Virus genome (UHGV): UHGV-0036148
Strand: one strand, 5' to 3'
Source of the DNA: a virus
Length of the DNA: 55,727 nucleotides
In this document: piece by piece, positions 1 to 55,727 of the stretch
Numbering within the stretch: position 1 is the first letter of the stretch
Layout of the letters: the number at the start of each line of letters is the position of its first letter
The notes under the pieces: model-generated
The model's database searches: none
Told to the model about the DNA's origin: nothing
Seen by the model: the letters and a program-made list of their open reading frames with translations, nothing else
Program-made: the position numbers and the translations under genes

Positions 1-89
1 TCAATGTATCCGCATTCGTGATACCAGTACGCAATGCCAGCACGGACAAAAAAGCGGGTTTTATCCCGCTTGTGTTCATAGATACGCAT
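1..89 (-). CDS. hypothetical protein, N-terminal part of an ORF that runs off the window start and is in frame with the partial ORF at 55590..55727
   Basis: ATG at 89..87 preceded by GGGGTGA SD; frame stays open to position 1 and joins the open frame at the window end. Confidence 0.3.
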   Translation of the reverse strand, partial: MRIYEHKRDKTRFFVRAGIAYWYHECGYI

Positions 90-99
90 ATTCACCCCG

Positions 100-330
100 T
101 TATGCAGTTGTGTAGCTGTCCACCAGCTTTTCATCTTTCATTCTGGCAAGCTGGTCGATGTTCATCGTGTAGCCGCCATCGGAGAAAAGCAATTCAGCCG
201 CAGCGCGACGAAAAGCAATATCATCATGGTTACGTGTCCATGTAGCGATCACAACGCGTTTCCCGTTAGTGGCGAACATAGACAATTCGTTATCAACAAC
301 GTCGATAGCCTGCCAGATTTTTAATTCCAT
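100..330 (-). CDS. hypothetical protein (76 aa)
   Basis: six-frame ORF in tightly packed minus-strand operon; no recognisable motif. Confidence 0.4.
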   Translation of the reverse strand: MELKIWQAIDVVDNELSMFATNGKRVVIATWTRNHDDIAFRRAAAELLFSDGGYTMNIDQLARMKDEKLVDSYTTA

Positions 331-686
331 GATTTATCCCCGTAGATCTTGAATAGTTCACACGCTTCCTGATTTTCAAATATATTCATATGCAGGTCAC
401 GCAGGCGGCGCATTGTGCGGAAGCGCGGCCTGAACTCCTGGCTACGTTTAATGTATTTGCCGCCAATTGAATAAATATGCCCGTATGCGTACCATCTGTT
501 ACCTACCCATATATCATATTCTTTGCCTTCGTAATTAAATTTTATCGTTAGCTCGCCAACCTCAACTATTAACCCTTTGTCAATAATGTCATTAAGCATT
601 TCGTCCCATTCTTTGAGGAATGGTTGTTGATAAAAACCAAAAAGCGTATTTACAGCATGGCAAAGATAGTCAATGATTATTTGCAT
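321..686 (-). CDS. hypothetical protein (121 aa)
   Basis: ORF in operon context; no recognisable motif. Confidence 0.4.
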   Translation of the reverse strand: MQIIIDYLCHAVNTLFGFYQQPFLKEWDEMLNDIIDKGLIVEVGELTIKFNYEGKEYDIWVGNRWYAYGHIYSIGGKYIKRSQEFRPRFRTMRRLRDLHMNIFENQEACELFKIYGDKSWN

Positions 687-690
687 ATTA

Positions 691-903
691 TCACCACATC
701 ATATAATAAACGTTCTCGTCAGCTAACATGTCAGCTACATCCTGCGTCATGTGTCTGGCCTCAAGGAAAAAATCCTCACTATGCCATTCCCTTACAAGCA
801 TGCGCGCCCATTTACGGCGCTGGCGCTTATTGCGTCGCAGATCATCAAAAGCCTTTAATGCTTTGTCATATGCCCTTACCAGGCGTTTACGGTTACTTTT
901 CAT
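691..903 (-). CDS. small basic protein, tandem paralog A
   Basis: MKSNRKRLVRAYDKALKAFDDLRRNKRQRRKWARML closely parallels adjacent ORF 916..1104. Confidence 0.45.
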   Translation of the reverse strand: MKSNRKRLVRAYDKALKAFDDLRRNKRQRRKWARMLVREWHSEDFFLEARHMTQDVADMLADENVYYMMW

Positions 904-915
904 TTTTCACCCCAA

Positions 916-1104
916 TTAACCAAATAAATCCTCAGCAACAACATCATAAGCCTGATCAGCGGTTAATTTAGTATCACCAAAATTCCAATCCTTTGCTAAT
1001 TTCCTGGCTATGCGTCTTCTCTTGCGCTTATTGTTTTTCAGGTCGTCAAAATAACACAAACATTTATCATACGCCCTTACAAGGCGCTTAAGGTTACTTT
1101 TCAT
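916..1104 (-). CDS. small basic protein, tandem paralog B
   Basis: MKSNLKRLVRAYDKCLCYFDDLKNNKRKRRRIARKL; paralog of 691..903. Confidence 0.45.
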   Translation of the reverse strand: MKSNLKRLVRAYDKCLCYFDDLKNNKRKRRRIARKLAKDWNFGDTKLTADQAYDVVAEDLFG

Positions 1105-1107
1105 ATT

Positions 1108-1407
1108 TTAAATCCTATATTGCCAATAAATATCGCAGTGGATAGCAAAAACCTTAACAGGATCGTCACCAAACAAAGGATGTTGAATTGTCTTAATTGT
1201 GTACCCCATGTAAGGGAGAACAAGAATCCGCTTCTTATCTTCGTTTGCAGGGTATCCCCATTTAAGAATCAATCTTGTGTAGTCGCGCCCCTCAAGGCGT
1301 TTGCGCCAATAGTCATTATAAAGCCGGTATTCCTCTACCTTCTTCCCCGCCCGGATAGCGTGGAAGTATTCTCCTTTTAAATTCAAATGCAGGTGTTTAC
1401 TTGCCAT
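1108..1407 (-). CDS. putative ASCH-domain protein
   Basis: AGKKVEEYR fits the ASCH GxKxxExR signature; ATG at 1407 with AGGA SD; assignment from motif only. Confidence 0.35.
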   Translation of the reverse strand: MASKHLHLNLKGEYFHAIRAGKKVEEYRLYNDYWRKRLEGRDYTRLILKWGYPANEDKKRILVLPYMGYTIKTIQHPLFGDDPVKVFAIHCDIYWQYRI

Positions 1408-1669
1408 TGCTATGATCCTGTAAACAGTCGTTATAGCCTTCAATGTATCCGGTTAATCCGGTGTTACTCACTGACCATTCAGCTGAACGGCGCTTGATGG
1501 CCTCATCCATCGTAATTTCACCTTTACGGTGACATCCGGCGTCAATGTAACGGTTGACAACTGAAGACAACCTTCCGCGTAACTGTTGTGTTCCGGCGTA
1601 ATGGTGGGCCGTTTCCGTTAGTTCGTTAACTAGTTTTGCAAATAGATGTTCCTTTAATTTAGGCTTCAT
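1397..1669 (-). CDS. hypothetical protein (90 aa)
   Basis: ATG at 1669 overlaps upstream stop (translational coupling), GGGGTGA SD. Confidence 0.4.
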   Translation of the reverse strand: MKPKLKEHLFAKLVNELTETAHHYAGTQQLRGRLSSVVNRYIDAGCHRKGEITMDEAIKRRSAEWSVSNTGLTGYIEGYNDCLQDHSNGK

Positions 1670-1859
1670 TATCGTCACCCCGTTTGTATATTTTGATTGG
1701 CTTGATTGGGATTGCTGGCAATTCACCTTCATTCAATGCGCTTGCCATGCCCAATATTAAACGCGCTTCAGCACCAGTAACTTTCTTACACCACGCACCG
1801 CCCGTTTTATCTTCGAACAAGATAACGGCAAACTGATCGTTTATTTCCAGCTTATCCAT
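1659..1859 (-). CDS. hypothetical protein (66 aa)
   Basis: start overlaps Q stop codon (TAATG); operon context. Confidence 0.4.
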   Translation of the reverse strand: MDKLEINDQFAVILFEDKTGGAWCKKVTGAEARLILGMASALNEGELPAIPIKPIKIYKRGDDNEA

Positions 1860-2581
1860 TATTCACCCCGTGTCACTCGTTTGATTTCGTTGTCAGCCCG
1901 CGCCTCTTCTTTGAACAATTCGGCAATGGCGTCTTCATAGAAAGCCCGGTATTTCTTCCACCATGTTGATCGGCTTACCGGGAAAACAAGCTGATTAACC
2001 GCCTGCCGGACAAGATCTACAGGGAAACGCGAGTACCCGCGCCCGCCGCAGTGCTGGCACGTTTTGAACACTGGCATTTCCGCCGCTTCACTGGCTGCTT
2101 TATCCGGTACTTCGCCACGGCCCTTGCATTGTTTGCAATGATTGCGAACCGTCCCATGCCCCTTGCATTTTTTGCAAAGGTGTTTCTCACCGTATTCGTC
2201 AAACGTAAATTTATATCCGCCGCACTCCATACAAGTTTTTTCCGTCGCGGCGCTTTGGCAATAATCCCGAAACGCGAAAACGGCAACAAGAATAATGAGA
2301 TCATTGCGTTTGGCCTCGTCCAGTTCCATAACGTATTCATAATCTTTTGCCATAGCCCTTAAACGCTCTGTAAGCAAAACTACGGCCTTATGTTTTTCGG
2401 CTTGTGATAGTTCCATCTTTCCCAAAAAAGCGCTATAACCAAGCTCTACGCGCGATTGCGCCATACCTGCCGCAGTTAGTGCATCCGTAGTATTAAGAGC
2501 GTCCGGGGACGTGCCCCGGCTTTCATCTGATAAACGCGGTGATTTTGGGAAGTGGAATTTAAGAATAGATTCCAGATTCAT
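1859..2581 (-). CDS. Q: late antiterminator Q (lambda type) with extra CxxCxGxG zinc-finger repeats
   Basis: N-terminus MNLESILKFHFPKSPRLSDE... and C-terminus ...GYSRFPV...ADNEIKRVTR parallel lambda Q as I recall it; four CxxCxGxG motifs. Confidence 0.8.
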   Translation of the reverse strand: MNLESILKFHFPKSPRLSDESRGTSPDALNTTDALTAAGMAQSRVELGYSAFLGKMELSQAEKHKAVVLLTERLRAMAKDYEYVMELDEAKRNDLIILVAVFAFRDYCQSAATEKTCMECGGYKFTFDEYGEKHLCKKCKGHGTVRNHCKQCKGRGEVPDKAASEAAEMPVFKTCQHCGGRGYSRFPVDLVRQAVNQLVFPVSRSTWWKKYRAFYEDAIAELFKEEARADNEIKRVTRGE

Positions 2582-3784: not shown

Positions 3785-3961
3785 TTATTTTTGATTCTCT
3801 GTTTCGTTCAGCCTTTCGGCGTGTCCGGCCCTTAGCCAATGTTCTAAGCATTCGTTGCACTCGTTACAGCCTCCTTTCTTCGTGCTGCATACATTGCACA
3901 TTGCACGCATGACGCTCTCTCGTTCATAGTCGTCATGCCATTGGTAATTATCAAAAGGCAT
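3785..3961 (-). CDS. small Cys-rich protein (putative zinc-binding)
   Basis: CNVCSTKKGGCNECNEC motif; ATG at 3961 with AAGGAG SD. Confidence 0.4.
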   Translation of the reverse strand: MPFDNYQWHDDYERESVMRAMCNVCSTKKGGCNECNECLEHWLRAGHAERLNETENQK

Positions 3962-4120
3962 AATGCTCTCTCCTTTTAAGGTGATTTCTACGCATTTCAG
4001 CGCTGCCGGATTTTTAAAGAGCATTTTGCTTGCTTGAAGTATACAAAATGGATACGTGTAAACAAGACGAATAGCGCCATTATGTGATCCACATCACGCA
4101 ATGGCGCCATTTTGTAAATT

Positions 4121-35691: not shown

Positions 35692-38600
35692 TTATTTGCG
35701 GCGAGGTTGCAACATTCCTCCAGGGCGTTGCGACTCCCTTGCCATCATTTTCATTGCTACGCGTTCCATTGTCTGCTCAAGCCTGCGGCTATCCTCGTCA
35801 CTAAATCCGTTTGTGGTCTGGACGGTGATGTTTACAGGCATATTGATACCGCCACCGCTGAAAAGATCGCGGCCAGGAATAACCCTGCCATTTTCACCAG
35901 GAATCATATACTGACGCCCGTTGCTCGTCTGGAATAGCTCCGGTATCCCGTGTTCCCCTACGCGATACAGGCTACCACCATTAACCGCACCGCCGTTATA
36001 GCGAGCGCCAGCCAGTCCAAGCGTTTTGGCGGCAGCTACGCCAGTAGTAAGCCCAGTAAGTCCAGTGGCCCCAGCGCCGCCCATCGTGGCAACGTTTGCC
36101 AGGTATGCAGGAGTAGCCCACGCTGATGATAACGCTGCCGCCTCTGCCAGTGCTTTGGTTGTTGCCATAGTTCTTGCTGTATCACCAATCAATTGCTGCT
36201 TGACCCACTCAGTACCCATTTGAACAATCGTACCAATCACAGAGGAAAGGATTGTATTGCCAATGTTAGCCAGCGCCTGTTGCCAGCTTTGAGTACCGTT
36301 AATCAGGCCGACAAGCGCGTTAGTTGCAGATCCGCCCATTGCATCAACAGCATCACCTAACAGTTGGTTGGTCAATGACTGCGCCTTATACCTCTCCCAC
36401 TGAAGTGATAGCATTTCCCTCTCGTGCGCTTTTTCTTGCTCCCTCATATATTGCTCTGTAGCGCCTAAATCTGTGAGCATTTGTTTGCGAACCGCCCATT
36501 CGTTCATCGCCTGCTGAATTGGGTCTAGCTGCCCGCGTAGTTGCAGCTCATTGTTTACCAGATTATCCCAACTAGATTGGCGTTTGCGTTGCTCTTCCGC
36601 CGCAACCAGCGCTTTCCATGCCGTAGTATATTGTTCGGTATTTATTTTTCCGCTTTTAAGTGCGGCGTTTAGCGCATCCTGATCCTCTTTTAATTTCCGT
36701 TGTGCTGCGGCTTCTACGTTGTATTTGTCTGCAACATTCTGGCCCCGCTTCTCAATCTCTTTGCGCAGGCGTTCAGCCTCTTTTAGACGTTTTTTCTCCT
36801 CGCTTTCGCCAGTTTTTTTCCCATGACTGGCCTTTCTTTCAGCTTCGGCGCGTTTCTGCTCGGTGTCGTATGCTTTGGTCATTGTAGCCATGTATTTTTC
36901 ATACGCTTCCCCGGTCAGGTTTGCTTTCTCAGCCTCACGCTTAAACCCATCAATCGCCTTTTCCCTGCTGGCTGTTTTGGAGTCGAGTTTTGCCAGTTCC
37001 AGGCGGCGGTTTGCCAGATCCATTAGTTCTTGTTGATCTGCGTTAAGTGCTGCTGAAGCGTGTTGCGTTGCTGCTGCTGCGCGTTCTGCTTCTGTGGTGA
37101 TTCTTCCGTATGCATCCGCCACCAACCCTAATGAAGTGGCAAGGGTCTTCATTAGCGGATCTGTATCCTGCATAAGCAAAATATATTTGCGCTGCATTTG
37201 ATTAAGGCGGTCGAGAATATCCTCACGCTGCGCCTCTTCCCTGGTCAGGCGGGCTGTGATTTCCTGATTAGCTTTCGATAGGTTGGCGTAAGCGCGTGAC
37301 CCCTCCTCTGCTTTCTCCAGTGCCTGTTTATTCAGCTCCAGCGCCTGCGTGTCCTGGTCAATCTGTTTGTTGAGACTGGCAACGTCTTCCTCTAACTGAC
37401 CCATTGATATTTGTAGTTTATCTGCGCCAGCCAGTTTAGCCGCCTTGCTCATTCGCTCCAGTGATTCGGTACTAACATCCACTGAATCAGCAAGGTTGCG
37501 GTTTGCCTCTGCCGTTTGATCTACGTGATCTACATATGCTGTCAACCCGTAAACAGCAAGCATTAACGCGCCAGGGATACCACCAATCGCGCCCAGAGTA
37601 GCGCTAAATGCTGTTTTTAGTAGTCCCGCATTAGTCGCCGCCGCAGTGTGGGCCGCAGCAAGGCGCTGCTCTGCCGCAGTAAGGGCGTTTGATGCCGCCG
37701 TGTTCTGTGCTTTGGCTACAGCCAATTCTTTCAGCGTCTGAACTTCGAATTTTGTTCCGGCGTTTGCCGCAGCATAAGCCTGCGCCTCTCTCAGCCTTGC
37801 CGCCGCCGCCGCTGCTGATTGCCGTGCTGATACCACCTGAGCGTTAGCTAGCGCCAATTCACTCTGAGCGGCCTGCCGTGCCGCTGCCGTTTGTGCCCTG
37901 GTTGCCTGAGCGTTAGTTAATGCCTCTGCTGTTGCAGCTACGAATTTATTTACCACTCTGCCACCCATCACAGTGGCAAGGCCAATAAATGCAGTAGCTA
38001 TTTCGTTAAGGTTTTCTGACAGGGTTACAACTGCCGAATTAAAAGCACCAATCCCGCCCATAATTGACGAATTGCTGCCGAAAAATTTAGCTGCGTTGTT
38101 GCCTGCAACAGTGAAAGCCTCCTGCATAGTTGGGGTGAGTTTAGAAAACTCAGCATCAACCTCCGCTTTCATTTCCTTAAGGGCTTTAATGATAGCTTCA
38201 CGGGTGATCTTCCCTTCTGCTGCCATCTTGCGCATTTCTGCCGACGATACGCCCAATGATTTAGCCAAACCCTCTGACAGCCTGGTAGCGTTTTCTGTAA
38301 CGGAGTTAAATTCATCGCCATTCAAAACACCTTTGGCGAGGGATTGACCCAACTGACGGATCCCGCCTTCTGCTTCAGCGGCAGAAGCGCCAGAAATGCG
38401 GAATGTTTTGTTAATGGTTTCAACCATATCACCAAGTGCTTGCGTCGATAAACCAGCGTCGCGCGTCGAGCGCTCTAATTTACCGTAAAGATCTGCCGTA
38501 GCATCAAGATCGCTTCGTGAATTTTGCGCGATCTGAAATACACGCTGATTAACGTCTGCCAGTGATTCACCAGCACGAACGCTATTGATTAGCCTGTTAT

Positions 38601-49649: not shown

Positions 49650-49736
49650 TTAAAACCATTTACATAGAATATATAAGCACGCAATTAATGTTGCGCAGTA
49701 CGTTAATACTTCCAGCCAGTCGAATAGCTCTTTCAT
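49650..49736 (-). CDS. mini membrane peptide 9 of array (28 aa)
   Basis: MKELFDWLEVLTYCATLIACLYILCKWF; AGGTGA SD; stop overlaps terS SD. Confidence 0.4.
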   Translation of the reverse strand: MKELFDWLEVLTYCATLIACLYILCKWF

Positions 49737-49743
49737 TGTTCAC

Positions 49744-49812
49744 CTACTGAGTTAGTGCAGCCATAGTCAGAGAAATAGCGACAAACAGGAAGAAGAAATC
49801 AAGCCATTTCAT
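49744..49812 (-). CDS. mini membrane peptide 8 of array (22 aa)
   Basis: MKWLDFFFLFVAISLTMAALTQ; AGGAG SD. Confidence 0.4.
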   Translation of the reverse strand: MKWLDFFFLFVAISLTMAALTQ

Positions 49813-49829
49813 TTTTGAACTCCTGCGAT

Positions 49830-49901
49830 TCAGTTAACACTTAAAAGCACCGCAATAATGACAATCACTATAATCATGCAAAAGAAATCTGCTTCCCTCA
49901 T
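49830..49901 (-). CDS. mini membrane peptide 7 of array (23 aa)
   Basis: MREADFFCMIIVIVIIAVLLSVN; ATGA overlap with upstream stop. Confidence 0.4.
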   Translation of the reverse strand: MREADFFCMIIVIVIIAVLLSVN

Positions 49902-49978
49902 TTCCTGAACCCTCGATAAAAGTCAACAGCAACGACCACAACTACAGCCACCAATAACAGCATTTCATATGCGTTCAT
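49898..49978 (-). CDS. mini membrane peptide 6 of array (26 aa)
   Basis: MNAYEMLLLVAVVVVVAVDFYRGFRK; GGGAG SD. Confidence 0.4.
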   Translation of the reverse strand: MNAYEMLLLVAVVVVVAVDFYRGFRK

Positions 49979-50072
49979 CGACACTCCCTATAACCAGCCC
50001 AATAATAAGGATGATGGCGACAACGCCCAGCATCATGCCGAACATGATCGCCAGTAATTCGAATATATCCAT
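49965..50072 (-). CDS. mini membrane peptide 5 of array (35 aa)
   Basis: MDIFELLAIMFGMMLGVVAIILIIGLVIGSVDERI; AGGTGA SD. Confidence 0.4.
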   Translation of the reverse strand: MDIFELLAIMFGMMLGVVAIILIIGLVIGSVDERI

Positions 50073-50080
50073 GCCGTCAC

Positions 50081-50155
50081 CTATACGACATTCTTCCACC
50101 AGAAATAGATAATGACGGCGACCACTGACCACCAGATGAGATCGTAAACACTCAT
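50081..50155 (-). CDS. mini membrane peptide 4 of array (24 aa)
   Basis: MSVYDLIWWSVVAVIIYFWWKNVV; GAGG SD. Confidence 0.4.
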   Translation of the reverse strand: MSVYDLIWWSVVAVIIYFWWKNVV

Positions 50156-50164
50156 GCGGATGCC

Positions 50165-50239
50165 TCAGCTTTCAATGAATATCATGATCGCCAGCCATAC
50201 AGCGAAGCAGGCGGAAAGGATGATGAGCGGGTCAATCAT
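50165..50239 (-). CDS. mini membrane peptide 3 of array (24 aa)
   Basis: MIDPLIILSACFAVWLAIMIFIES; GGGGTGG SD. Confidence 0.4.
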   Translation of the reverse strand: MIDPLIILSACFAVWLAIMIFIES

Positions 50240-50252
50240 CTTGCCACCCCGT

Positions 50253-50348
50253 TTAGCATTTGCTCTTTGTGGCTATCAGCACAGCGATAACAAAACCCAC
50301 CAGGAATACAGACACGCCGATCAATCCGGCTATTTCGTAAGCGTTCAT
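50253..50348 (-). CDS. mini membrane peptide 2 of array (31 aa)
   Basis: MNAYEIAGLIGVSVFLVGFVIAVLIATKSKC; shares MNAYE start with peptide 6. Confidence 0.4.
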   Translation of the reverse strand: MNAYEIAGLIGVSVFLVGFVIAVLIATKSKC

Positions 50349-50352
50349 ATAG

Positions 50353-50421
50353 TTAATCCCATAACAGAAAGACTACAGCTATAACCATTCCGATGAATAA
50401 ACCACACAGAAAAGTGAGCAT
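50353..50421 (-). CDS. mini membrane peptide 1 of array (22 aa)
   Basis: MLTFLCGLFIGMVIAVVFLLWD; GGGGG SD; ATG 2 nt after stop of HExxH gene. Confidence 0.4.
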   Translation of the reverse strand: MLTFLCGLFIGMVIAVVFLLWD

Positions 50422-51008: not shown

Positions 51009-51287
51009 CAGAATAATCTCCTATTCTGAAAAATATAACCCCCGCAAAACTCGACACCGCAGGGAGTGAAAACAGCTATAAAACACTGAAAACGGCGCTT
51101 CATCAGTACCGTTTCCAGAATTTTATAAAATTGGTGAATGGCGCTTTCTTCTACCCAGGTAGCGCCCGACCTGTTAATGGGACTGTTGATCCGGTATTAC
51201 GTGTTTTTGACTATTCCGCCGTCGCTCGCGGGAAGGATTGGCCCGGTTATGGCTGGCTGGCGAAAACGGCGACACGTCCACGCGCTG

Positions 51288-51758
51288 TTATTTTTTGCGT
51301 AAGCACTGCGTTTTGATATAGCTCTGAAGTCCGGCGATCTTCGCGTCTTTCTCTTTTAGTTGTTCTCTGAGGGATAGATAAGCCGATTCAGCGTCTGGAG
51401 TGAGTCTACAGGTGGCTCCATCAATGCGGCTGGCGGTTCCGGTATTGTCGAGCAATCGCACTGGCTCGGCGTTGACGTGCAACCGGATAGCACCGCTATC
51501 AATGCCAGCACGCAGATCGGCAATGTCAGATCTGATAGCTTTAATCTCATCGTGATACCTCTTATCAAGTTTTGACAGTTCGGCGTTTCGCTCCTTCATC
51601 TGCTGAATAGTGTTACTTGCTGTTTTTAGTGCGCCTTTCGTCACCGTGACTTCTTCCTGCAACCTTGCCGTTTCACCCTGGTAATAACACGTTACGGCTG
51701 TAAGGCTGGCAATAATGCAAACAACAACGGCGATGATTAACGTCTTCACCTTGTCCAT
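51288..51758 (-). CDS. i-spanin (Rz-like)
   Basis: N-terminal TM helix then coiled-coil; directly downstream of endolysin. Confidence 0.65.
51356..51550 (-). CDS. o-spanin (Rz1-like) embedded in Rz in alternate frame
   Basis: [24 protein letters not shown] lipobox, Pro-rich mature part; fully nested in Rz. Confidence 0.55.
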   Translation of the reverse strand: MRLKLSDLTLPICVLALIAVLSGCTSTPSQCDCSTIPEPPAALMEPPVDSLQTLNRLIYPSENN

Positions 51759-52237
51759 TTCTCACCCCATTCGCAAACGGCATATTCAACCTCGCGGCGG
51801 TTTACCAGGCCTTGCCACTTCTTACCGCCAGCGTATACCCAGCGTTTAAGCTGTGCGCACGCTTCTGATTTCTTGCCGTCATTGAGTAGTTTTAATAAGG
51901 TTGATGTTTTAAAGTTGGTTGTGCCTACGTTATAGGCGAATGAATAAAGTGCTGCGCGGGTAAAATCTGATATTTCGACTTTAATATAGGGATCGATCGC
52001 TTTTGCGGTCTTGTGTAGATCTTTATTTAACAAAGTATCGCATTCTGATTGCGTGTAAGTCTTGCCAAGCATGATGTCTTTTCCGGTGTGACCGTGGCAA
52101 ACAGTCCACACACCAACAACATCACGATAAGGATTGTAATCAACTCCCTCTAATGGCTTAATCATCACCGCCGCAATAGCGATCGCCCCACCAGCCGCCG
52201 CCGCAACAATCTTGTTTTTCAGCGATTGGCTAATCAT
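51746..52237 (-). CDS. SAR endolysin (T4-lysozyme-like muramidase)
   Basis: Gly/Ala-rich N-terminal SAR segment [18 protein letters not shown]; E...D...T catalytic spacing in [18 protein letters not shown]. Confidence 0.85.
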
Positions 52238-52438
52238 TTACTTATTCCCCATTCGCGCGTCGTGTTCCTCTTGCGCTCGCTTGTTCTCCTGTGATTTGAA
52301 GTAATAGTTAACGGCAAATGTGCCTACGGTTGATAAGATACCCACAAAGACGGCAATATCATTGATGGTTATCGCGCCGAAAAAAGCAGTTACGGCCCCA
52401 GTCACATACGCGCACGCCTCCCGTATTCTGTCTAACAT
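52238..52438 (-). CDS. holin (pinholin-like, two TM segments)
   Basis: 66 aa, two hydrophobic segments, charged C-terminus, immediately upstream of SAR endolysin. Confidence 0.65.
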   Translation of the reverse strand: MLDRIREACAYVTGAVTAFFGAITINDIAVFVGILSTVGTFAVNYYFKSQENKRAQEEHDARMGNK

Positions 52439-52455
52439 AGATTTACCTCCAACAA

Positions 52456-52480
52456 AGCAAAAACCCGGCGCGGGGCCGGG
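52456..52480 (-). terminator. rho-independent terminator immediately upstream of holin (tR'-like)
   Basis: minus strand CCCGGC-cccgc-GCCGGG followed by TTTTTGCTTTGTT. Confidence 0.55.
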
Positions 52481-52508
52481 TAATTACAATTTCGCATTGT
52501 TAGGTAAT

Positions 52509-52537
52509 ATTTTAATCTGTTTGTTTACGCTCTACAA
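52509..52537 (-). promoter_or_regulatory. candidate late promoter (PR'-like)
   Basis: minus strand TTGTAG - 17 bp - TAAAAT about 30 nt upstream of terminator hairpin. Confidence 0.3.
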
Positions 52538-52545
52538 ATACGGCT

Positions 52546-52722
52546 TTACGACTTTCTTTTTATCAGGCCATTATCAAGCAATAATTGCATTTGTTCACGG
52601 CTCATATTTACACCAGACCAGAAAGGCCGCTCACTCGACATAACAAAAACCTTTTCACCTTTCAGCAAGTAAGCAATATCAAATACATTATGCAAATAGA
52701 TGCCGTCTTCGATCTCGTTCAT
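52546..52722 (-). CDS. hypothetical protein (58 aa)
   Basis: ORF below 60-aa cutoff found by manual translation; MNEIEDGIYLHNVF... Confidence 0.3.
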   Translation of the reverse strand: MNEIEDGIYLHNVFDIAYLLKGEKVFVMSSERPFWSGVNMSREQMQLLLDNGLIKRKS

Positions 52723-52916
52723 AGCTCACCAACCTTGCGCCAATATCCGTGATTAAACATCGTGATGATCTCCACAGATGTCATAGGTAAAAACGGCTCA
52801 TGCCACTTCTCAAACTGACTTAATCGCATCATCACTTGTTCACCTTCAAGGCGATAATAAGCGCGTGAAGCCAATGACTGATAAACACCGTCATATTGAT
52901 GGTTGCTATTTCCCAT
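52719..52916 (-). CDS. hypothetical protein (65 aa)
   Basis: ORF in operon context. Confidence 0.35.
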   Translation of the reverse strand: MGNSNHQYDGVYQSLASRAYYRLEGEQVMMRLSQFEKWHEPFLPMTSVEIITMFNHGYWRKVGEL

Positions 52917-53148
52917 TTTTACGCTCCTTAATGGCTCGCTTGATCTGCTCTACCGTAGCATCGAAGAAAGCAAGAAACATAACTACAGGCCATAAAGGAA
53001 TCTCAAGGCCACCAGGTTTAGCACCGCTAAACTTAATAAAACATGACATCAGGATCGCGCCAGCGATATAAAGCAAAACAATCACAGCAATAAGGCATTC
53101 AATCATCATCGTCCTCATCGTCCTCATGTTCAGCCAGGAACTCATCAA
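52906..53148 (-). CDS. small membrane protein (two TM)
   Basis: IAVIVLLYIAGAILMSCFI and LWPVVMFLAFF hydrophobic segments. Confidence 0.4.
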   Translation of the reverse strand: MMSSWLNMRTMRTMMIECLIAVIVLLYIAGAILMSCFIKFSGAKPGGLEIPLWPVVMFLAFFDATVEQIKRAIKERKNGK

Positions 53149-53353
53149 CTACGCGGTAAGTCACTGGCGGGATGTATTCGAAATCATCAGAATCAAGATC
53201 AAGCGTCCGGCTGTCGCCGTCATCGTCCAGCGTATTCATCCCTAATTCACCGAAAGGGCCGTACCCAATACAGCCCAGATATTCGCAACCAATCGTAAAG
53301 CCAGGATATTCTCCCTTACACCTGATCTTGTACAGCTTATTTGATGCGCTCAA
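53099..53353 (-). CDS. small protein with poly-acidic C-terminal tail
   Basis: ends ...AEHEDDEDDDD; Cys/Gly-rich N-terminal half. Confidence 0.4.
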   Translation of the reverse strand: MSASNKLYKIRCKGEYPGFTIGCEYLGCIGYGPFGELGMNTLDDDGDSRTLDLDSDDFEYIPPVTYRVVDEFLAEHEDDEDDDD

Positions 53354-53660
53354 TGTTAATTCCCCCTTCCGCGCCCTCAGTCATTTTGTATTCCGCCACC
53401 AGTTCAGCACCGATCAATTCCACTTCATCACCAGGGAACGGAACGAGCGCCAGCGACGCGAAAACAAACTGTTTAATGTGGTTCAGATGGTCAAGGTCTT
53501 TCACGTCAAAAGGCGGTTCCGCTACATCGAAGCACTTAACACATGATTCATCATCAGTTGCTACACGGAAACATGCGCCAGGTTGTCCAGCGAATTGTCC
53601 AAGTTTTTTATTTTCTGCAAAAGTGCCACGGAAAACCTTAACGCTGATAAATTTAGACAT
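53337..53660 (-). CDS. hypothetical protein (107 aa)
   Basis: ORF in operon context. Confidence 0.4.
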   Translation of the reverse strand: MSKFISVKVFRGTFAENKKLGQFAGQPGACFRVATDDESCVKCFDVAEPPFDVKDLDHLNHIKQFVFASLALVPFPGDEVELIGAELVAEYKMTEGAEGGINIERIK

Positions 53661-53663
53661 TTG

Positions 53664-53921
53664 TCATTCTCCTTCGTAAAGAATTGTTACCAGTTCTGCA
53701 TCTGTTAGCGTGTTGTGATCTTTATAAGTACCGTAGCGAGCAACGAAAGCTATTTCGCCAGCTATTTTCCGCCACATAGGGATCGACTCATCAAAATAGG
53801 TGTTCTCCATTGCCTCCCTGTATGCCAGTTCATAAAAACGCCCACGGTTAACATCTTCAATCACGCGGCTATACGTGCCATCGGTACGACTTACGCCGCG
53901 CCATAGCCTGAACACAACCAT
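53664..53921 (-). CDS. hypothetical protein (85 aa)
   Basis: ORF in operon context. Confidence 0.4.
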   Translation of the reverse strand: MVVFRLWRGVSRTDGTYSRVIEDVNRGRFYELAYREAMENTYFDESIPMWRKIAGEIAFVARYGTYKDHNTLTDAELVTILYEGE

Positions 53922-53923
53922 AA

Positions 53924-54223
53924 TTAAAACTCCGCACCAGGTAAGCTACGCGCTTTGTTTACCACATCGCTTTCTAGTCTACGACGCGCTTTATAATTCA
54001 TGTTCGACATAAAGATTGCAGGTGTTTCATCATACCATGCCTTAATTTTTAACAACTGATCCACAGTGAAAACCATGTCATCATCTGTTATGTATAGCCA
54101 GTCTTCGCGCTTGCCGACCACAACATGAGATTTTCCCCAACTGTCTTTAAACTCATAATCGCAGAAGGCATCACCTTTAGGCACTTCAACAAAACAGCAC
54201 GCTATGAACTTATTGCTTTTCAT
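53924..54223 (-). CDS. hypothetical protein (99 aa)
   Basis: ATG 54223; longer frame would begin inside an intergenic hairpin. Confidence 0.4.
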   Translation of the reverse strand: MKSNKFIACCFVEVPKGDAFCDYEFKDSWGKSHVVVGKREDWLYITDDDMVFTVDQLLKIKAWYDETPAIFMSNMNYKARRRLESDVVNKARSLPGAEF

Positions 54224-54262
54224 GATTTTGTCCCATCTGTCTTTCTGTGGTTTATATATAAC

Positions 54263-54292
54263 AAAATGGCATCGCCGGAGAAATGCCATTTT
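54263..54292. promoter_or_regulatory. perfect 10-bp inverted repeat hairpin in intergenic gap
   Basis: AAAATGGCAT-cgccggagaa-ATGCCATTTT. Confidence 0.4.
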
Positions 54293-54295
54293 GTA

Positions 54296-54317
54296 TACAT
54301 TGTGATACAGATCACAT
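54296..54317. promoter_or_regulatory. CRP-consensus palindrome TGTGA-N6-TCACA
   Basis: cattgTGTGAtacagaTCACAtttt; perfect half-sites, 6-bp spacer, A/T flanks as in CRP consensus. Confidence 0.45.
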
Positions 54318-54326
54318 TTTGTTCAT

Positions 54327-54614
54327 TTAACTTGCATTTTCATCTACCTTTAAATAATTTTTCGTGTCAATACCTGCCGGATACCTTGAAAATTGCGCTA
54401 ACCATTGTCCGGTAATGTTTTTCACCAGTGCATAATCAAGATCGCCGCAGTAGAATACCTGGTACATTGTCCCTTCGTTATCATCCATAACAAAGACCAT
54501 CGGATCAGTAGTCGCATTGCGCAGCCTGTGAATCGTGTAAGCCTGGCCAGTAGTGAATTTGTACTCGTTACACGTTGTGCGGCAAAACATCCGGTCAAAA
54601 TAGCTTTCCATCAA
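54327..54614 (-). CDS. hypothetical protein (95 aa)
   Basis: ORF in operon context. Confidence 0.4.
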   Translation of the reverse strand: MMESYFDRMFCRTTCNEYKFTTGQAYTIHRLRNATTDPMVFVMDDNEGTMYQVFYCGDLDYALVKNITGQWLAQFSRYPAGIDTKNYLKVDENAS

Positions 54615-54862
54615 AAAATCCCCTTATAATCGACCGTGTATTTTGCTATCAGCTTCCATTCACAATAGCTTTCCATGTCTCGCGGCTGCCAGCCTTTCAT
54701 GCCTACAGCACTCCGCGCAGCGTGACGGCGATAATCGTCATTAAGATCCGCAATACACCACGGCTGAAGAAAAAACATATAATTCGCTTCGTTAACCAGG
54801 ATAGACATTAGTCTTCCAGTGGCCTTATCTTTCGCCCTGAAATAACTTACCTTGATTTTCAT
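54611..54862 (-). CDS. hypothetical protein (83 aa)
   Basis: ORF in operon context. Confidence 0.4.
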   Translation of the reverse strand: MKIKVSYFRAKDKATGRLMSILVNEANYMFFLQPWCIADLNDDYRRHAARSAVGMKGWQPRDMESYCEWKLIAKYTVDYKGIF

Positions 54863-55073
54863 TTTTAATTACCTCGATCAACATTTCTTCTTCCAGGTTA
54901 GCCGGACGTTTACGAAATATTCCGGCAAAAACCAAATCGTCGAGTAGGTCTTTACGCTTAAATAACCACTCCTTCATTATTACCCCGTCGTCGCTGCGAT
55001 ATACGACGCCGTTTTTCAGAAAATAAAAAGTACGGGTGTTTGTCTGGAGGTATAGATCTTCGTAAACGTCCAT
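54825..55073 (-). CDS. hypothetical protein (82 aa)
   Basis: ORF in operon context. Confidence 0.4.
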   Translation of the reverse strand: MDVYEDLYLQTNTRTFYFLKNGVVYRSDDGVIMKEWLFKRKDLLDDLVFAGIFRKRPANLEEEMLIEVIKNENQGKLFQGER

Positions 55074-55077
55074 GATG

Positions 55078-55305
55078 TTAACCCTCGACTACTTCCAGCC
55101 CGCGCCCCTTGTCGCCAACGAAGCCCCCCAGGCTGAACGTATACGACCATGCCGGATTAATGTAATGGTCATCAGCGCCAGCGGCTATCAGGTCAGCACC
55201 GTTAATCATGCATGTGACATTATCGCTATGCACCACTTTAACGACCTTACCAACAACCTGTTTCAGTGACGGATAACCGTGATCGTGCAAGAATTTTACT
55301 TTCAT
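55078..55305 (-). CDS. hypothetical protein (75 aa)
   Basis: ORF in operon context. Confidence 0.4.
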   Translation of the reverse strand: MKVKFLHDHGYPSLKQVVGKVVKVVHSDNVTCMINGADLIAAGADDHYINPAWSYTFSLGGFVGDKGRGLEVVEG

Positions 55306-55307
55306 CT

Positions 55308-55586
55308 TTACCCCTTATAAGTAACAGCATCAGAAAGCAACAATACCGCCAACATCTCACCGCCATGTAACGGATCTGGAATACCAAAAAATATATCGCT
55401 TTTACTGTCAGGCACTACTACGCGCATATTTCCCTGTTTGTCTTCATGCACGAACCACAGCTTTTCGTGTGGCTCAAACATGCCGAAAAGCAATTTAAGA
55501 TCTATCTCTTCGCCCTTCGTGAATAACGAAACATCCGTTGTGGCTATAACTAACGCTTTCTGATCTGCTGTTTTCTTCGTTCTCAT
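55308..55586 (-). CDS. hypothetical protein (92 aa)
   Basis: ATGA overlap with upstream partial ORF. Confidence 0.4.
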   Translation of the reverse strand: MRTKKTADQKALVIATTDVSLFTKGEEIDLKLLFGMFEPHEKLWFVHEDKQGNMRVVVPDSKSDIFFGIPDPLHGGEMLAVLLLSDAVTYKG

Positions 55587-55589
55587 TCC

Positions 55590-55727
55590 TCTGTCTCCCA
55601 GCGTTCAATACTGATTAAGAAGTCCCGGATAGCGTGTCGCTCGTCGCGCGTTGGTTTGCGCTTACGGTAGATCCTGAAATCGAACCATTCTTTTTCCTGC
55701 TCAAAATCCAAATCGTAAGCAACAGCT
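55590..55727 (-). CDS. hypothetical protein, C-terminal part of ORF running off the window end (in frame with 1..89)
   Basis: open frame ...AVAYDLDFEQEKEWFDFRIYRKRKPTRDERHAIRDFLISIERWETEE ending at 55590. Confidence 0.35.

Follow-up and report, generated by a model that had tools for sequence, protein, structure and literature searches.

The locus examined here raises the question of where the late genes of a phage are switched on when its Q antiterminator gene is not followed by a late promoter. The sequence, virus genome UHGV-0036148, was analysed over its whole length of 55,727 nt, referred to as the window. It derives from a temperate E. coli phage of the mEp021 group (mEpimmI), and seven phage records match the region at 86-95% identity. 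The mEpimmI phages were described in 2025 as Nus-dependent and non-lambdoid, and as a group that is common in the human gut (PMC11893012). Early (N-like) antitermination has been studied in this group, and the literature searched contains no account of a late promoter. Nearly all genes discussed are carried on the minus strand. The genes are co-directional all the way from the repressor gene via Q to the structural genes, with TERM_1..6 spaced along them. The following features are relevant for the analysis:

1859..2581, minus strand: Q gene, 240 aa, Qlambda family, with a stop codon overlapping the ATG of the next gene (TAATG)
1..1858, minus strand: part of the cargo region adjoining Q (5' half), directly downstream of Q, with a terminator-like hairpin at 71..52
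52546..55727, minus strand: downstream half of the cargo region, small and tightly packed ORFs, continuing from 1858..1 across the window ends
52532..52537, minus strand: -35-like hexamer TTGTAG, 3/6 match to TTGACA, not conserved
52515..52526 (-24..-13), minus strand: conserved part of the spacer, AAACAAACAGAT, candidate Q-binding element (QBE) with the core AAACAA, low diversity
52509..52514, minus strand: -10 hexamer TAAAAT of the putative PR', pi=0 in 37 unique relatives
52496..52501, minus strand: -10-like AACAAT at about +1..+6, 7 nt past the -10, putative SDPE, pi=0
52452..52481, minus strand: intrinsic terminator, tR'-like, with a 7-bp GC stem, a 5-nt loop and the tail TTTTTGCTTTG
52238..52450, minus strand: SD (GGAGG, 52450..52446) and holin gene (66 aa, class II, ATG at 52438), first gene of the putative late operon
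52237..51746, minus strand: lysozyme gene after the holin gene, Pfam Phage_lysozyme
51758..51288, minus strand: Rz-like gene, Pfam Phage_lysis, followed by terminase and structural genes

The family of the Q protein was determined by profile and structure-based comparisons. Q matched PF03589 with E=4.9e-30, above the cut-off, phrog_127 with E=9e-79, and the Qlambda chain of the loading complex 7UBM (chain Q) with E=4e-39, the N- and C-terminal halves both being aligned. PF03589 is assigned to the Qlambda family (PMC9388147). The matches to PF03589 and 7UBM bear out a preliminary description of the window, which had placed a lambda-type Q gene at 1859..2581. Identity to lambda Q is 35%, and a Cys-rich insertion of 31 aa is present at the base of the zinc 'arm'. 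A long arm is the usual state in the Qlambda family, lambda being a short outlier and most members having even longer insertions. Residues ~115-147 (window 2238..2140) contain extra CXXCXGXG motifs of the DnaJ-like zinc finger type (PF00684, sub-threshold, E=8e-6). They are located at the base of the Qlambda arm, which contacts QBE positions 11-13 and sigma region 4.

More than 25 related contigs carry the sequences of the two window ends side by side, which shows that the window is circularly permuted. Across this joint, the stop codon of Q (1859) and the ATG of the holin gene (52438) are 5,147 nt apart, in agreement with the 5 kb that had been estimated for a circular genome. The block of small genes described between Q and the unit is present, but it comprises 20 non-nested ORFs, not about 17, and these overlap or are at most 38 nt apart. 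Since the stop codon of Q overlaps the next ATG, there is no non-coding space at the place where lambda has PR', and a composite of a -10 and a second -10-like hexamer was detected just once in the window. The classical adjacency of Q and late promoter is thus broken for the putative PR', as had been proposed. The sole sizeable gap in the 5,147-nt interval is 107 nt long, holds the candidate unit and directly precedes the lysis cassette. Searches of the Q-to-holin interval for a second PR'-like unit, adjoining Q or elsewhere, found none. The only other sense-strand terminator-like hairpin in this interval is the one at 71..52, and no convincing -10 or SDPE (promoter or pause element) is present upstream of it.

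The hairpin at 71..52 on the minus strand (AAGCGGGATAAAACCCGCTT followed by TTTTGT) is located within the first ~15 codons of a small ORF (ATG at 89), midway between Q and holin. It is near-invariant in 45 of 48 related loci and corresponds to the ARNold-predicted 'T7' of mEp044. It could be a genuine internal terminator of the early operon. Three further observations concern the same strand. The nutR2 site of the mEp021 papers, a canonical boxA (TGCTCTTTAAAAA) followed by a hairpin with a GAAA loop, maps to about 4027..4000. As it overlaps the first codons of the listed ORF 4024..3785, the NinF-like gene probably starts at an internal ATG. The Rz-like gene is followed by a non-coding stretch of 280 nt (51287..51009) containing a weak hairpin and T-run (GGAAACGG..CCGTTTTC), the equivalent of TERM_6 of mEp021, which late transcription must cross to reach the terminase genes. 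Finally, a tandem array of about nine tiny ORFs (22-35 aa) occupies 50421..49650, between a phrog_1365 gene and the small terminase gene; each encodes little more than a single hydrophobic, transmembrane-like stretch, as in MLTFLCGLFIGMVIAVVFLLWD, MNAYEIAGLIGVSVFLVGFVIAVLIATKSKC and MIDPLIILSACFAVWLAIMIFIES.

The order of elements in the gap before the holin gene is, on the minus strand, TTGTAG, a 17-nt spacer, TAAAAT, ATTACCT, AACAAT, GCGAAATTGTAATT, the hairpin ACCCGGC-CCCGC-GCCGGGT, TTTTGCTTTG, GGAGG and ATG. Transcription is predicted to start near 52502/52501. The hairpin (52481..52463), which begins 27 nt past the -10 and is followed by TTTTGCTTTG, was found by a terminator scan and has a folding energy of -19.7 kcal/mol (z=-3.35). 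The predicted terminated RNA has a size of ~45-48 nt. The holin ORF matches Pfam Phage_holin_2_3 (E=1.6e-14). In the preliminary description, TTGTAG-17-TAAAAT had been taken as a minus-strand promoter, followed about 30 nt later by a GC-rich hairpin with a U-tract and by the SD and ATG of the holin gene, and the arrangement had been likened to lambda PR'-6S RNA-tR'. The hairpin, U-tract, SD and ATG are all present, and the likeness to lambda gained support from the comparative evidence given below, including the SDPE-like AACAAT that had been overlooked. Regarding the promoter, the sequence exists and its -10 is invariant, but the -35 is not conserved, and a promoter scan gave no call at this position because TTGTAG matches TTGACA at only three of six positions. 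An extended -10 is absent from the unit. The single Rfam hit to the unit region, rnk_pseudo, was sub-threshold (26.5 versus 55 bits) and was dismissed as chance.

Given the size and composition of the window, about 3.6 occurrences of a -10, 5-8 nt and AACRAT would be expected, and one was observed. The combination is therefore no rarer than chance, and the motif alone is no evidence. What lifts it above chance is where it lies, in the single sizeable gap (107 nt) immediately ahead of the lysis cassette, together with the conservation of its individual elements.

For the analysis of conservation, 62 loci were collected via the holin, Q was located in them and the pre-holin region was aligned. 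Diversity was calculated on 37 unique sequences. Among the relatives, gene content and length of the cargo region vary, the distance from Q to the unit ranging from 2.0 to 6.5 kb with 8-25 small genes. At least four unrelated cassettes occupy the position just upstream of the unit, and still a conserved block stretches from about -24 as far as the ATG. Within this block, no diversity is seen in the -10 and in AACAAT (pi=0 for both), and very little in the two stem arms (0-0.015) and in GCGAAA (0.018). For the spacer segment AAACAAACAGAT, pi is 0.056 compared to 0.157 at holin third-codon positions. Other segments drift at about the neutral rate, namely the hairpin loop (0.24), the discriminator (0.16) and +13..+20 (0.156). 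Overall, no variation is seen at 25 of the 26 positions for which a function is predicted, versus 19 of 66 holin third-codon positions (Fisher p=1.2e-9) and 5 of 20 non-coding positions predicted to be free (p=4e-7).

The -35 segment behaves differently from the rest of the unit. Its diversity is high (pi=0.36), and it is part of a mosaic junction. Variable cargo and the conserved start of the late operon meet at a recombination junction at about 52526..52540, approximately -25 to -35 of the putative promoter, and the -35 hexamer is consequently swapped along with the upstream cassette. Two classes were distinguished, one with TTGTAG, TTGTGG or TTGTTG, and a second one with TCGCGC, which comprises about one third of the relatives. 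The isolated phage MagusPhagus probably belongs to the second class, its match beginning only at position 20 of the 107-nt query. Among the relatives, no correlation was detected between the class of the -35 region and the Q subtype. When the same block was sought next to Q in other phage groups, it was not found, being confined to the seven mEpimmI records.

To go beyond close relatives, Q homologues were obtained by protein searches, with 76% identity in P0009 and 45-48% in P0010 and P0011. The contigs of all three show the same order of genes: NinG, RusA, a small gene, Q, 11-25 small genes (3.1-6.5 kb), a gap, holin, lysozyme, Rz and terminase. In L077/78, with a Q of 76% identity, the unit lies 6.5 kb from Q, and the gap of L077 reads TCGCGC-17-TAAAAT-ATCCTC-AACAAT-...-CCCGGCCACGCGCCGGG-TTTTT. 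In L073-76, the Q proteins of which are 48% identical, a 10-bp hairpin of unlike sequence with a T-run occupies the equivalent place before the holin gene. Here the gap, given for L073, is AAGCGC-17-TATAAT-TCCCTC-AATAAT-GG-...-AAGGCTGGAA-TTG-TTCCGGCCTT-TATTTTTTTG, and the hairpin has a folding energy of -22.8 kcal/mol (z=-5.6). The second -10-like hexamer is located 6 nt past the -10 in both, AATAAT in L073 and AACAAT in L077. From the two gaps it follows that the layout of the unit outlasts changes in its sequence. The holin gene is preceded, in order, by a consensus-like -10, a second -10-like hexamer 6-7 nt further on, a short leader and a hairpin with T-run. A poor -35 (TCGCGC in L077, AAGCGC in L073) is likewise common to the distant lineages. 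The displaced layout of Q and unit is therefore kept in three lineages, with Q identities down to 48% and distances of 2.0-6.5 kb.

The Q protein of lambda binds a 13-bp site in the spacer between -35 and -10, with its HTH at positions 1-4 and its arm at positions 11-13 (PMC9388147). In the three lineages, AAACAA is present throughout at -24..-19 or -25..-20. Furthermore, the spacer sequence co-varies with the putative recognition helix of Q over four classes:

lambda, P22: helix TQPTWSRTVK, spacer TTGAATAAARTTGGG
HK225, Eho49, Klebsiella phage, L051: helix DTWKKSVK-like, spacer TTCCCGAAnCTGnG
SEN22, P0013: helix PETTWRRxYK, spacer AAGTGGCGAT(T/A)TTTGTT
window, P0009, P0010: helix STWWxxYR, AAACAA at -24..-19 or -25..-20

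SEN22 and P0013 have the spacer in common despite differences in -10 and SDPE, which supports AAACAA... as the core of a QBE. On these sequence comparisons, AAACAA... is regarded as the candidate core. A similarity of the ITR to SEN22 and Eho49 (CTAACAGTAGAAAT...) seemed suggestive at first and was set aside, as P0013 combines the helix type and spacer of SEN22 with a different ITR.

Judged by its sequence, the 107-nt gap is likely to be the cis half of a Qlambda-type switch, PR'-QBE-SDPE-tR', which has been uncoupled from Q by variable early-gene cargo. Transcription start, pausing, Q binding and Q-dependent readthrough can be envisaged by homology to lambda (PMC9388147). RNA polymerase would start near 52502/52501 at a sigma70-dependent, PR'-like promoter with the conserved -10 TAAAAT and a weak, unconserved -35. 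Sigma region 2 would re-bind to AACAAT at +1..+6, and the complex would pause at about +16. Without Q, transcription would end at the hairpin and T-run (+21..+48), yielding an RNA of ~47 nt. Once Q has been produced from the early rightward operon, which lies 5 kb upstream, it would bind to the spacer (candidate QBE AAACAA..., -24..-13) and load onto the paused complex, rendering it resistant to the terminator. The modified polymerase would then transcribe holin-lysozyme-Rz and, passing later terminators such as the TERM_6 equivalent behind Rz, continue into the terminase and structural genes. Accessory genes inserted between Q and PR', and not downstream of tR', would fall into the delayed-early unit controlled by the N-like protein (Gp17). 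The 8-25 small genes found there are accordingly predicted to be delayed-early genes under N-like/Gp17 antitermination. Early transcription antiterminated by N-like Gp17 could itself read through the terminator, and Q would then not be the sole route to the lysis genes.

Several other explanations were weighed against this switch. The hairpin might be a terminator only, marking the end of a non-antiterminated early rightward operon (t5), with the late genes reached by readthrough of PR-initiated, Gp17- and/or Q-modified polymerase and with TAAAAT and AACAAT conserved for some other cause. The poor and unconserved -35 would fit, as would the co-directional arrangement from repressor to structural genes with TERM_1..6 along it, and t5 is treated in the mEp papers as a terminator of the antitermination system (PMC11893012). 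Nevertheless, a terminator only is unlikely, as it leaves unexplained why two -10-like hexamers at lambda-like spacing are invariant amid drifting non-coding bases, and why TATAAT-6-AATAAT is kept in L073 together with an unrelated hairpin sequence. Moreover, a Qlambda-family protein needs a QBE and an SDPE, and no other candidate for them is present in the window.

The unconserved -35 leaves room for two minority possibilities, a weak or activator-dependent promoter, or loading of Q on polymerases of the early operon. Sigma70 can access elongation complexes in trans, pausing them at -10-like elements. Based on the dispensability of the -35 in three lineages, the unit may be viewed as a promoter-independent or Q-activated loading station, at which Q with its enlarged double-zinc arm would recruit or reposition sigma70 on early-operon polymerases, or would activate a promoter lacking a -35. 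Such a station is quite improbable, but if it exists, early-operon readthrough and late-operon switching would merge at one site. It is very improbable that Q loads here without any dedicated promoter, with TAAAAT/AACAAT and AAACAA acting as a loading station for early-operon polymerases that have retained or rebound sigma70. Such loading would agree with the fact that none of the three lineages has a conserved -35, and with the position of the unit, in line with a co-directional upstream transcription unit of 5 kb containing Q, but the geometry is exactly that of the promoter-proximal Qlambda cassette, including a purine at the expected start and the consensus TATAAT in L073, and the literature examined contains no case of Q loading at a distance from a promoter.

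Three further readings, taken together, are hardly credible: a promoter independent of Q whose leader acts as an attenuator, a unit that gives rise to a small regulatory RNA tuning holin timing, and a boxB-like site serving the N-like protein as a fourth nut. In their favour, the leader is very short and ACAAT-GCGAA-ATTGT could pair into a 5-bp stem with a GNRA-like pentaloop, but Rfam offered only the sub-threshold chance match. The nut/boxB interpretation of this hairpin was rejected on three grounds. No boxA is present in 52545..52439, whereas nutR2 has one; the 3' arm varies (ATTGT to ACTGT, ACTAT and AGTGT) while the 5' arm stays invariant and offers no compensating change; and L073 lacks the hairpin.

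The probable PR'-QBE-SDPE-tR' unit provides the mEpimmI group with a model of the late switch that has exact coordinates. It would imply that a Q gene and its target are separable, which differs from the definition of the cassette as Q and then its transcription unit. Since Q is a diffusible protein, the displaced layout is only moderately surprising. The model predicts that the 8-25 hypervariable small genes are expressed delayed-early and not late, which bears on the roles guessed for them, such as host takeover or anti-defence. In a softer version, the layout may define a distinct hypervariable 'post-Q early cargo' compartment of 8-25 genes, with a timing unlike that of classical lambdoid moron cargo. 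In addition, the lineages offer a natural series of recognition-helix/spacer pairs for studies of QBE specificity in long-arm Qlambda proteins.

Parts of the unit are already on record. The 107-nt sequence is identical in mEp021, in which TERM_5 is annotated as a rho-independent terminator (MH706966.1), and a pre-holin terminator is annotated in mEp021, mEp010, mEp013, mEp044 and mEp515. 't5' is listed among the experimentally demonstrated terminators (PMC11893012), and from the ordered numbering t5 should correspond to TERM_5. The terminator is thus already known, as is the lambda-like nature of Q. A late promoter, qut or SDPE is neither annotated in the mEp021 record (MH706966.1) nor mentioned in PMC11893012, the supplements of which contain nothing on terminators or promoters. 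A non-exhaustive full-text literature search found no account of a Qlambda gene lying apart from its cassette.

[quoted passage not shown] Their sequences are as follows:

lambda: TTGACT-17-TAAATT-TGACTC-AACGAT-GGG
P22: same as lambda, with PR', qut, TSS and tR' annotated (OQ031658.1) and an RNA of ~58 nt
HK225, SfV, Klebsiella phage: AACGAT-GGG
L051: TTGACA-17-TAAATT-TGACGC-TAATAAT-GGG
P0013 (Citrobacter): TTTACA-17-TAATCT-GAAACC-AATGAT-GG

The geometry of -10 and SDPE in the unit matches that of lambda, P22, HK225, SfV, L051 and P0013. The -35 of every classical Qlambda-family PR' examined matches the consensus at 4-6 of six positions. With the lambda arrangement PR'-qut(QBE+SDPE)-6S RNA-tR' the unit shares a PF03589 Q, a -10 separated by 6-7 nt from AAC(G/A)AT at +1..+6, an intrinsic terminator before the lysis genes and co-directional late genes downstream. 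The differences are also clear. Lambda PR' starts 42 nt past the Q stop, whereas here the Q gene is not immediately followed by the unit, 5,147 nt and 20 ORFs intervening. The -35 is strong in lambda (TTGACT) but weak and unconserved here, and the leader is 194 nt in lambda compared to a predicted ~47 nt. The spacers, with the QBE of lambda and the candidate QBE here, are unrelated in sequence, and the zinc arm of Q is 31 aa longer in the window.

P22 resembles the unit in possessing a short-leader version of the cassette, with the TSS at 37887, the terminator at 37917-37945, an RNA of ~58 nt and the lysis genes following. Unlike the arrangement here, the P22 unit adjoins gene 23, has a consensus-like -35 and is separated by ~300 nt, from terminator to gene start, from the holin gene 13.

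Accessory genes between Q and the lysis genes are known from Stx phages, in which several kb of such cargo are located downstream of a PR'-SDPE-terminator unit adjoining Q. L051 likewise resembles the window in having several kb of accessory genes between Q and holin, but its PR'-SDPE-terminator adjoins Q, and 3 kb of cargo lie downstream of the terminator under late, Q-dependent control. In the phage described here, the cargo is located upstream of the unit, and, unlike in L051, early control is predicted for it.
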